Source of the DNA: a virus | Taxonomy: Duplodnaviria; Heunggongvirae; Uroviricota; Caudoviricetes | DNA: 46,467 nucleotides | IMG/VR virus record: IMGVR_UViG_2778261457_000007 | Reading direction: 5' to 3' (one strand) | Notes under the pieces: generated by a model | Told to the model about the DNA's origin: nothing | The model's database searches: none | The model's input: the letters and a program-made list of their open reading frames with translations, nothing else | In this document: positions 42,357-44,828 of the stretch, in pieces | Numbering within the stretch: the first letter of the stretch is position 1 | Layout: every line of letters begins with the position of its first letter | Program-made: the position numbers and the translations under genes

Positions 42357-44828
42357 ATGAGTAAAGTCTTTATTTGCGCCGCTATTCCTGACGAACTGGC
42401 AACAAGGGAAGAAGGCGCTGTGGCTGTAGCCACAGCCATTGAAGCTGGCGACGAACGCCGTGCTCGAGCAAAATTTCACTGGCAATTCCTGGAACATTAT
42501 CCGGCTGCTCAGGACTGCGCTTATAAATTTATTGTCTGCGAGGATAAACCTGGCATACCCCGCCCTGCCCTCGATTCATGGGATGCTGAATATATGCAGG
42601 AAAACCGCTGGGATGAGGAGTCTGCTTCTTTTGTCCCGGTTGAGACTGAATCCGATCCGATGAACGTCACTTTTGACAAGCTGGCCCCTGAAGTACAGAA
42701 CGCTGTCATGGTTAAGTTCGACACATGTGAAAACATCACCGTTGATATGGTTATTAGCGCACAGGAATTGTTGCAGGAAGACATGGCAACATTCGACGGA
42801 CATATCGTTGAAGCGTTGATGAAAATGCCAGAAGTTAACGCCATGTATCCGGAGCTTAAGTTGCACGCCATTGGGTGGGTTAAGCATAAATGTATTCCTG
42901 GTGCTAAATGGCCCGAAATTCAGGCAGAGATGCGCATCTGGAAAAAACGTCGCGAAGGTGAACGCAAGGAAACCGGAAAATACACGTCTGTTGTTGATCT
43001 CGCCCGCGCCAGAGCCAATCAACAGTACACTGAAAATTCAACAGGAAAAATCAGCCCGGTCATTGCTGCCATTCATCGCGAATACAAGCAGACATGGAAA
43101 ACACTGGATGACGAACTGGCCTACGCTCTCTGGCCTGGTGATGTGGATGCCGGAAACATTGACGGCAGCATCCATCGCTGGGCAAAAAAAGAAGTTATCG
43201 ACAACGACCGCGAAGACTGGAAGCGTATCTCGGCATCAATGCGCAAACAGCCTGATGCCCTTCGCTACGACCGCCAAACTATTTTTGGCCTTGTCCGTGA
43301 GCGTCCGATCGACATTCACAAAGATCCCGTAGCACTGAACAAATATATCTGCGAATACCTGACGACAAAGGGCGTGTTTGAGAATGAAGAAACAGACCTG
43401 GGCACTGTTGATGTTCTCCAGTCATCAGAAACACAAACTGATGCAGTGGAAACTGAGGTATCTGATATCCCAAAAAATGAAACCGCGCCGGAAGCTGAAC
43501 CATCTGTAGAGCGTGAGGGGCCGTTCTATTTCCTCTTCGCAGATAAGGACGGAGAAAAATACGGTCGCGCAAACAAACTCTCTGGTCTGGATAATGCACT
43601 GGCTGCTGGCGCCACTGAAATCACAAAAGAAGAATATTTTGCCCGAAAAAATGGCACATACACGGGCTTACCGCAAAATGTAGATACCGCTGAAGATTCA
43701 GAACAACCAGAGCCGATAAAAGTTACCGCTGACGAAGTAAACAAAATTATGCAGGCAGCCAATATCAGCCAGCCTGACGCCGATAAGTTGCTTGCTGCAT
43801 CACGTGGTGAATTTGTTGAAGGGATTAGTGACCCGAATGATCCGAAATGGGTTAAGGGGCTCCAGACCCGCGATTCTGTGAACCAGAACCAGCATGAATC
43901 GGAACGGAACTACCAAAAAGCGGAACAAAACAGTCCAAATGCGTTACAAAACGAGCCAGAAACGAAACAGCCTGAACCAGTAGCGCAACAGGAAGTGGAA
44001 AAAGTCTGCACCGCCTGCGGTCAGACCGGCGGCGGCAACTGCCCTGATTGTGGCGCGGTGATGGGCGACGCAACATACCAAGAAACATTCGATGAAGAGT
44101 ATCAGGTTGAAGTTCAGGAAGATGATCCGGAGGAAATGGAAGGCGCTGAACATCCACACAAGGAGAACACTGGCGGCAATCAGCATCACAATAGCGATAA
44201 TGAAACTGGCGAGACGGCAGATCACCCAATTAAGGTGAACGGTCATCACGAAATCACATCCACCAGCAGGACGTGTGACCATCTAATGATCGACCTTGAA
44301 ACCATGGGAAAAAATCCTGATGCCCCGATCATCTCAATAGGTGCAATATTTTTCGATCCGCAAACCGGAGATATGGGACCGGAATTTAGTAAGACTATCG
44401 ATCTGGAAACTGCTGGCGGAGTCATTGATCGGGACACCATTAAATGGTGGCTTAAGCAATCACGCGAAGCGCAATCTGCCATTATGACCGATGAAATCCC
44501 GTTAGATGATGCACTGTTACAATTGCGAGAATTTATCGACGAAAACTCCGGTGAATTTTTTGTTCAGGTTTGGGGAAATGGAGCCAACTTCGACAACACG
44601 ATTTTGCGCCGTTCATACGAACGGCAGGGGATCCCCTGCCCGTGGCGTTACTACAACGATCGCGATGTACGCACAATCGTTGAGCTGGGGAAAGCCATAG
44701 ACTTCGATGCCAGAACGGCTATTCCATTCGAAGGTGAGCGCCATAATGCACTTGATGACGCCCGTTACCAGGCAAAATACGTTTCAGTTATCTGGCAAAA
44801 ACTGATCCCGAGTCAGGCTGATTCTTAA
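42357..44828 (+). CDS. large multidomain protein (YdfE-like) with zinc ribbon and C-terminal DEDDh 3'-5' exonuclease domain
   Basis: 823 aa from [20 protein letters not shown] (GAGG upstream of the ATG); zinc ribbon [16 protein letters not shown]; exonuclease motifs [23 protein letters not shown]. Confidence 0.7.
   Translation: [823 protein letters not shown]

Follow-up and report, generated by a model that had tools for sequence, protein, structure and literature searches.

A RecE-like scaffold joined to a predicted DEDDh exonuclease domain in the intact form of the prophage gene ydfE

The stretch of DNA analysed here, referred to as the window, comprises the 46,467 nucleotides of the Caudoviricetes virus record IMGVR_UViG_2778261457_000007 of IMG/VR, and the gene under study is a long putative exonuclease gene of the ydfE type, which, judged from its sequence, resembles recE but carries another nuclease. 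It lies in a Qin-type lambdoid prophage setting that adjoins rspB, where the gene order is DicC-like regulator, DicA-like regulator, ydfA, ydfB, ydfC, DicF, dicB, ydfD, exonuclease, xis and int (Table 1), and positions 33359 to 46467 of the window match Escherichia coli strain H15 at 99.7%. A first-pass annotation, made from the letters of the window alone, had described an intact open reading frame of 823 amino acids, and this description holds, the frame running on the plus strand without interruption from the ATG at 42357 to the stop codon that ends at 44828. The frame is open from a TTG at 42321, but the ATG is the start used in RefSeq, and a Shine-Dalgarno-like motif precedes it.

The DNA of the whole gene is 100% identical to that encoding WP_000048327.1 ("exonuclease"; present, for example, in E. 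coli strain H15), and identical DNA occurs in many E. coli chromosomes under the annotation "exonuclease" or "3'-5' exonuclease". Of the 5426 complete E. coli genomes, 3537 contain at least 80% of the gene. The copies in the phages PhiR42_1, HannyBb and Tritos are 99-99.9% identical and that of mEp460 about 92%, and PHROG 2082 ("exonuclease", 823 positions) covers the protein from end to end (residues 1-822 of 823). RefSeq, PHROGs and a list of DexA homologues published in 2025 therefore already include the protein, and as an object it is not new. A literature search, which was limited, found no paper describing the combination of a RecE-like scaffold with a DEDDh domain or reporting assays of the full-length protein.

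Over its first 256 residues the protein matches, with 100% identity, what is encoded by the pseudogene ydfE (b1577) in the Qin prophage of K-12. K-12 MG1655 lacks the DNA corresponding to window positions 43124-45307 and has an IS2 remnant in its place, so that neither the linker nor the exonuclease domain is encoded there, and xis is gone together with the 5' end of int. This deletion explains why ydfE and intQ are pseudogenes in K-12 and why xis is missing. Together with the identity of the first 256 residues, it identifies the gene in the window, at the level of sequence, as the intact, ancestor-type form of ydfE. Both this relationship and the fact that the gene is among the commonest prophage genes of E. 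coli, already annotated as a 3'-5' exonuclease, had escaped the first-pass annotation.

Table 1. Features of the exonuclease gene, its product and its surroundings in the window (aa, amino acids).
Feature	Position	Strand	Remarks
DicA-like (CI-type) repressor gene	40211..40618	+	head of leftward operon
DicF small RNA	41662..41713	+	Rfam; upstream, same transcription direction
dicB	41888-42076	+	upstream of exonuclease gene
ydfD	42073-42264	+	immediately upstream of exonuclease gene
Shine-Dalgarno-like GAGG	42343..42346	+	10 nt from GAGG to ATG
Complete exonuclease coding sequence, intact ydfE type	42357..44828	+	823 aa plus stop
YdfE-type N-terminal head, aa 1-260	42357..43136	+	aa 1-256 as in K-12 ydfE
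Weakly RecE-like middle, aa 262-345	43140..43391	+	versus RecE 278-355, about 26% identity
Mini-domain, aa about 385-435	43509..43661	+	two beta-hairpins plus helices in the model, pLDDT 81-87
Linker in common with RecE, aa 455-627	43719..44237	+	versus RecE about 440-592
Near-invariant peptide motif, aa 476-510	43782..43886	+	from comparison with RecE
Four-cysteine zinc-ribbon motif	44007..44051	+	C551, C554, C562, C565; conserved in RecE
Acidic linker, predicted disordered, aa 566-640	44052..44276	+	pLDDT <50 over roughly 569-637
DEDDh 3'-5' exonuclease domain (predicted), aa 642-813	44280..44795	+	Pfam Rv2179c-like, T4 DexA-like fold
Excisionase (xis), DUF1233	44901-45152	+	immediately downstream of exonuclease gene
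Integrase	45172/45187-46467	+	downstream of xis

The C-terminal domain is, by its sequence and predicted fold, a bona fide DEDDh exonuclease domain. It matches Pfam PF16473, the Rv2179c-like 3'-5' exoribonuclease family, with 226.5 bits against a cutoff of 27 (E=2.4e-67) and over model positions 2-177 of 177, and its only match by sequence in the PDB is DexA of phage T4, a 227-amino-acid "exodeoxyribonuclease" (8KEL/8KEN). The characteristic motifs are present as MIDLET (644-649), WGNGANFD (739-746) and HNALDDARY (796-804), and residues D646, E648, D746, H796 and D801 align with D7, E9, D119, H186 and D191 of DexA; in an alignment of 31 sequences of the family E648 is nearly invariant and the other four of these catalytic residues never vary. 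Residues 440-823 were modelled with AlphaFold2; the predicted local distance difference test score (pLDDT) is about 78-94 over most of residues 640-820, with one block of ten residues at 66, and the model is poor upstream of the domain. The top Foldseek match of the domain in the PDB is again DexA (E=8e-10, target-normalised TM-score 0.65), followed by RNase T and then by oligoribonuclease (Orn) and REXO2. The first-pass annotation had placed a DEDDh-type 3'-5' exonuclease at the C-terminus, in a nuclease superfamily other than that of RecE and lambda Exo, and had proposed structure prediction as the check; Pfam, the match to DexA, the modelled fold and the catalytic residues all agree with both statements.

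The long region in front of this domain, to which the first-pass annotation had assigned no function, is indeed present, but much of it is recognisable by homology. BLASTP aligns residues 262-627 with residues 278-592 of K-12 RecE, the non-catalytic part of that protein, and the NCBIfam equivalog model for RecE (PRK09709) aligns residues 246-623 with its positions 271-600 at 281 bits, which is below its cutoff of 1269. Similarity is weak in the middle region, with about 26% identity over residues 256-345, and strong in the linker, which is 66% identical to RecE over 159 aligned residues (dN 0.23 and dS 0.44, that is, nonsynonymous and synonymous divergence at the codon level) and includes two blocks that are nearly invariant, one being the peptide at 476-510 and the other the four-cysteine ribbon with its acidic continuation. 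The cysteine motif (CTAC at 551-554 and CPDC at 562-565, in a part of the model of low confidence, with a pLDDT of about 55) and the acidic linker (14 acidic and no basic residues in 561-600) had both been noticed on first reading; what had not been seen is that the RecE homology, as judged by sequence, extends over both of them as well as over much of the supposedly uncharacterised region.

The remainder of the scaffold is less similar to RecE. Pfam gives no match to the Exonuc_VIII N-terminal domain (PF06630) in the protein, and hhalign, when given the profiles of the two heads, YdfE and RecE, detected no homology (probability 0.2%, both profiles being shallow). Heads of the YdfE type were found only in Escherichia and Shigella by a word-indexed search, and distant relatives came to light in a profile search. 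The mini-domain is not found in K-12 RecE and is conserved in distant YdfE-type proteins, such as P0240 (GPFYYRSETGDKIGRANKL...); it is also the only informative part of the AlphaFold2 model of the N-terminal 460 residues, the mean pLDDT of which is 45. In K-12 RecE, the linker is followed by a PD-(D/E)XK nuclease (residues 606-866, of which Pfam DUF3799 matches 615-850), and neither Pfam nor a tblastn search of the window with the C-terminal domain of RecE detected such a nuclease in the protein encoded here.

The homology of residues 262-627 thus makes the gene, as far as its sequence goes, a homologue of recE, partial in extent and equivalent in position, in which a DEDDh nuclease has taken the place of the PD-(D/E)XK nuclease. 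Its position had been likened by the first-pass annotation to that of the recombination genes of lambdoid phages, and the likeness is real: the gene stands directly upstream of xis and int, as recE-recT does in Rac, where the order kilR...recE-recT...xisR-intR parallels dicB-ydfD-exo-xis-int. Since the Rac synteny is now accompanied by sequence homology to RecE, the argument from position is stronger than first stated.

To place this architecture among related ones, viral contigs were searched with the shared linker and the loci obtained were classified by tblastn and Pfam. A RecE-type head (PF06630) with a PD-(D/E)XK nuclease and then RecT was found in K-12 and at 56 viral loci; a RecE-type head with a longer PD-(D/E)XK nuclease and then a RecT-family gene of 350 amino acids at one locus (L150); a YdfE-type head with the RecE PD-(D/E)XK nuclease and then RecT at another (L157); a RecE-type head with a DEDDh domain and then xis-int in phage vB_EcoS-640R1 (L010); and a YdfE-type head with a DEDDh domain and then xis-int in the window. 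One and the same linker joins every combination of head and payload examined in these Escherichia-type loci, and the RecE-type heads are themselves mosaic, with variants beginning MSTKP... and MSTDK.... In L157 (IMG/VR 2529292726_000025, positions 4579-8044) the YdfE-type head and middle and the RecE nuclease form a protein of 887 amino acids; this is the reciprocal of the architecture in the window and provides a natural control for payload swaps.

The distribution of annealing proteins follows the payload. As the first-pass annotation had remarked, no recT or bet-like partner accompanies the gene: tblastn detected neither RecT nor a RecE-type nuclease domain anywhere in the window, and there is no gene for an annealing protein between the exonuclease gene and xis-int, which follow directly. 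None of the 80 closest relatives among the viral contigs has RecT in its flanks. When one genome of each species was scanned, about 30 proteins of 690-873 amino acids with a fused DEDDh domain came to light, in Enterobacter, Kluyvera, Citrobacter, Klebsiella, Pluralibacter, Buttiauxella and other genera, together with about 50 stand-alone homologues of 187-257 amino acids. None of the approximately 30 fused proteins from these other genera of Enterobacteriaceae has a match to RecT, Bet or Erf within 7 kb in a tblastn search with four seed proteins, and one of the stand-alone homologues has an Erf-like neighbour. In the loci examined, RecT therefore accompanies PD-(D/E)XK payloads and not DEDDh payloads, which suggests that the DEDDh form needs no annealing partner.

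These observations also bear on the idea that the protein replaces RecE functionally and that an annealing or strand-exchange protein is supplied in trans, either RecA or the RecT or Bet of a co-resident prophage. The idea draws on the position and the scaffold, which are those of RecE, and on the frequent presence of several such prophages in one genome, the DEDDh form reaching seven copies and 1736 genomes carrying recET; moreover, T4 DexA influences the outcome of recombination during intron homing (PMC12153337). Nevertheless, we consider it quite unlikely, since DEDDh enzymes degrade 3' ends and would destroy the tails required for reactions of the RecT, Bet or RecA type, and since RecT travels with the PD-(D/E)XK payload and was not seen with a DEDDh payload in the loci examined.

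Several further observations were made on proteins related to the head or to the nuclease. Many proteins of about 680-800 amino acids (P0242, P0243, P0247, P0251, P0276, P0285, P0314, P0348 and P0375) are distant homologues of residues 1-345 and carry, behind their YdfE-type head, a third type of C-terminal payload (PHROG 2489/7838, labelled "exonuclease"), with a conserved motif, ...KKSLTDAxKKALSxLGFSADVxLGLxD, followed by a coiled-coil tail. For this payload Pfam gave only a sub-threshold match to Rad52_Rad22 (E=0.041), and there was no match by sequence in the PDB; it might be a Rad52-like annealing domain fused to the scaffold. Stand-alone DEDDh homologues of about 190 amino acids adjoin EaA in Stx phage 1720a-02 (L008, positions 3998-4570) and in L216, within the accessory "ea" region that P22- and Stx-like phages have, and in one genome a stand-alone homologue adjoins a homologue of the anti-RecBCD protein Abc2. 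A contig labelled as a metagenome-assembled genome of Veillonella parvula (JAGZPX010000007.1, L175) contains a gene with a RecE-type head and a DEDDh domain that is 91% identical, next to xis and int that are 99-100% identical; this E. coli-type prophage end is almost certainly a binning contaminant.

The DEDDh form is both abundant and maintained. In the complete E. coli genomes the DEDDh payload was found at 8098 places in 4069 of the 5426 genomes, with up to seven copies per genome, and the RecE payload at 1827 places in 1736 genomes (annotated recE or recT among the matches listed); the DEDDh form is thus more than twice as widespread as RecE. Against the most divergent intact copies, the ratio of nonsynonymous to synonymous substitution (dN/dS) is 0.10-0.19 in the head, 0.30 in the middle, 0.11-0.25 in the shared linker and about 0.2 in the DEDDh domain, so that every segment is, by this sequence measure, under purifying selection. 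Within one pair of copies dS is 0.48 in the head and 0.02 in the DEDDh domain, a contrast between segments that indicates intragenic recombination, that is, mosaicism.

It could be argued that the gene is a decaying remnant of a recE-like gene without function, given that the copy in K-12 is a truncated pseudogene and that many database entries are fragmentary. Many of the latter are labelled "partial" and are artefacts of contig ends, however. The frame is uninterrupted in the window, and of 80 related viral contigs 58 have it whole, with most of the remainder truncated where the contig ends. With dN/dS at 0.1-0.3 in all segments, the catalytic residues conserved as described and the gene present in viable phages, we give this possibility next to no weight and reject it on the grounds of intactness, purifying selection and conserved catalytic residues.

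We propose that the product of the ydfE-type gene acts as a 3'-5' exonuclease on DNA ends during lytic growth, mounted on a RecE-like scaffold, rather than as part of a recombinase of the Red or RecET type, and we assign this reading a probability of roughly 0.6. Both the enzyme activity and the biological role are proposed from the sequence and the predicted fold. In K-12, the dicB operon is expressed from an early-left promoter that is repressed by DicA. Because of this and of the gene order, the gene would belong to a DicA-repressed leftward early operon (ydfABC-dicF-dicB-ydfD-exo-xis-int), and its product would probably be made mainly after induction or infection, in the manner of lambda exo/bet or recET of Rac. 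The scaffold would probably place the enzyme where scaffolds of the RecE type act, most plausibly at linear DNA ends or at recombination and replication intermediates. There, the DEDDh domain would use two-metal catalysis to take nucleotides off free 3' ends, and 3' tails and linear DNA would as a likely result be trimmed or destroyed, much as they are by DexA in T4. Two reasons for taking DNA 3' ends to be the substrate are the analogy to DexA and the scaffold in common with RecE, an enzyme acting on DNA ends. T4 DexA is a 3'-5' DNA exonuclease that functions in the breakdown of host DNA and in intron homing (PMC12153337). Possible uses of such an activity would be nucleotide salvage, the editing of recombination intermediates and the removal of competing DNA. 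The absence of RecT would also make sense. A nuclease of this polarity would remove the very tails that annealing and strand-exchange proteins need, since RecT, Bet and RecA use 3' single-strand tails, and this fits the finding that RecT occurs only with PD-(D/E)XK payloads.

Four points weigh against this proposal. Rv2179c, on which the Pfam family was founded, goes by the name of an exoribonuclease, and RNA could accordingly be the substrate. The timing of expression is deduced from gene order, and a consensus scan for a promoter or terminator near the gene gave nothing above chance, a result that speaks neither for nor against an internal promoter. The model of the N-terminal scaffold is, with its low confidence, uninformative as to what the scaffold binds. 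Finally, the search for annealing proteins was a tblastn search with four seed proteins, and divergent families of such proteins would escape it.

The first of these points leads to a distinct possibility, namely that the enzyme acts on RNA or small nucleotides, for example by trimming the 3' ends of transcripts or by degrading oligonucleotide signals of defence systems. The name of the Pfam family, the structural neighbours that follow DexA (RNase T and oligoribonuclease/REXO2) and the operon that the gene shares with the processed small RNA DicF are all in keeping with it. However, among relatives of known structure DexA, a DNA exonuclease, is the closest both in sequence and in fold; RecE, which has the scaffold in common with the protein, processes DNA ends; and PADLOC gave no link to signalling defence systems, so that we regard a substrate of this kind as having only a small chance of being the right one.

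A defensive role has to be weighed as well. A stand-alone DexA homologue of E. coli, EcD, is reported to degrade DNA containing 5-hydroxymethylcytosine (5hmC) and to protect against T4 (PMC12153337), and the protein studied here could be a defence nuclease of the same HREX type, which spares the unmodified DNA of the host, degrades the 5hmC DNA of T-even phages and so protects the lysogen. EcD belongs to the same domain family, WP_000048327.1 is included in the published table of bacterial DexA homologues (PMC12153337, Table S3), and the domain lacks the extra loops of DexA, as does the model of EcD. The neighbours in the operon affect the host too: their annotations name dicB an inhibitor of cell division and ydfD a lysis protein. 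There are also reports that DicB blocks infection by some phages. The details of the domain fit less well: of the DexA residues tied to the recognition of 5hmC (PMC12153337), W152 aligns with Tyr766 (several stand-alone homologues keep the tryptophan); D169 lies in a DexA-specific insertion that aligns poorly and has no clear equivalent (A780); and the tetramer residue D90, which is lost in EcD (A78), is retained here as Asp718. Furthermore, the protein is a fusion of 823 amino acids and not a stand-alone enzyme of roughly 180, an early operon under repressor control argues against steady expression in lysogens, and PADLOC reported only a generic match to a Cas-associated DEDDh protein (E=1.7e-5). 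Taken together, this makes a defence nuclease of the HREX type unlikely here. EcD itself (HAK9828821.1) is not among the listed homologues, and the window does not contain its primer 20-mer; the single match of this 20-mer among the viral contigs lies in an unrelated contig and was discarded as a chance match.

Apart from the exonuclease gene, a few features of the window deserve mention. Between the exonuclease stop codon and xis there is a hairpin (44840-44871) with a G+C-rich stem of 10 bp (-23.8 kcal/mol, z=-2.9); it has no T tract and is thus not a typical intrinsic terminator, and it may affect the expression of xis-int as a site of RNA processing or attenuation. An open reading frame for a transposase-like protein of 446 amino acids (helix-turn-helix plus rve_3; 34629-35969, minus strand) lies between flxA and the prophage replication region, and at the equivalent place in H15 a fragment of the ISEsa1 family is annotated. 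A DUF968 protein of 362 amino acids with a weak HNH-nuclease signature, similar to YdfU (30710-31798, minus strand), is encoded next to the Q antiterminator gene. The block from 24000 to 30000, which holds the lysis and accessory region, has a G+C content of 36-40%, compared with 55-60% in the structural genes, and in the near-identical phage PhiR42_1 the equivalent region contains cold-shock-like genes, GnsB and YnfN.

To return to the proposal of a 3'-5' exonuclease acting on DNA ends, a wider view would be that temperate phages of enterobacteria generally use the non-catalytic part of RecE as a modular scaffold for delivery, on which heads and payloads can be exchanged, and that the job of the DEDDh form is not a recombinational one. 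We put this forward tentatively and think it rather doubtful as a general statement. If true, a unit made of an exchangeable head, the peptide motif, the zinc ribbon and the acidic tether would bear one payload or another, the third of which is perhaps Rad52-like, and the DEDDh form could serve in the exclusion of competing phages, in anti-defence or in the destruction of the ends of host or plasmid DNA, being targeted by the same partner that the conserved motif binds. Full-length RecE, with its 600 non-catalytic residues, has been reported to outperform its truncated nuclease in linear-linear recombineering. A linker that here carries a nuclease of presumably opposite polarity and without an annealing partner, in a form that is under purifying selection and commoner than RecE, offers a handle on the role of the scaffold. 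A practical consequence is that the label "exodeoxyribonuclease VIII" on prophage genes often hides a different enzyme. With the protein itself already catalogued, what remains of interest is the modular scaffold with its partner, and the fact that the DEDDh form is the commoner of the two relatives in E. coli.

Compared with known systems, the gene is closest in its setting to recE of the Rac prophage of K-12, which encodes exonuclease VIII. The two have the same operon position upstream of xis-int, and their products are homologous in the middle region and linker (262-627 versus RecE 278-592), including the four-cysteine ribbon and the acidic tail, whereas the protein of the window lacks the DUF3799 nuclease and the PF06630 head, has no RecT encoded downstream and is expected from its sequence to degrade DNA with 3'-5' polarity instead of the 5'-3' polarity of RecE. 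Unlike the lambda Red and RecET systems in general, it has no adjacent annealing gene, and its nuclease is of the DEDDh type and not a 5'-3' PD-(D/E)XK enzyme. With T4 DexA and PF16473 it has in common the fold of the C-terminal 180 residues and the DEDDh residues themselves, but DexA is a stand-alone protein of 227 amino acids from a lytic phage, with extra loops and an identity of only about 22-32%, whereas the domain in the window is fused behind a scaffold of 640 amino acids and belongs to a temperate phage. EcD, the HREX enzyme (PMC12153337), is of the same domain family as the protein of the window, which is homologous to DexA and has the catalytic residues conserved; in contrast, EcD is a short stand-alone protein starting with MIDTET, and the residues proposed to determine specificity are not clearly conserved in the protein of the window. 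The K-12 gene ydfE is identical in its first 256 codons' product and has the same flanks (dicB and ydfD upstream, int and rspB downstream), the difference being the loss in K-12 of the DNA corresponding to 43124-45307. Finally, the fusion protein of phage vB_EcoS-640R1 (813 amino acids) shares the linker and DEDDh payload, which are 94.8% identical over residues 440-822, as well as the neighbours in the order dicB-ydfD-exo-xis-int, and differs in its N-terminal 430 residues, which are of the RecE type, contain Exonuc_VIII and are 58.6% identical to residues 50-591 of RecE.

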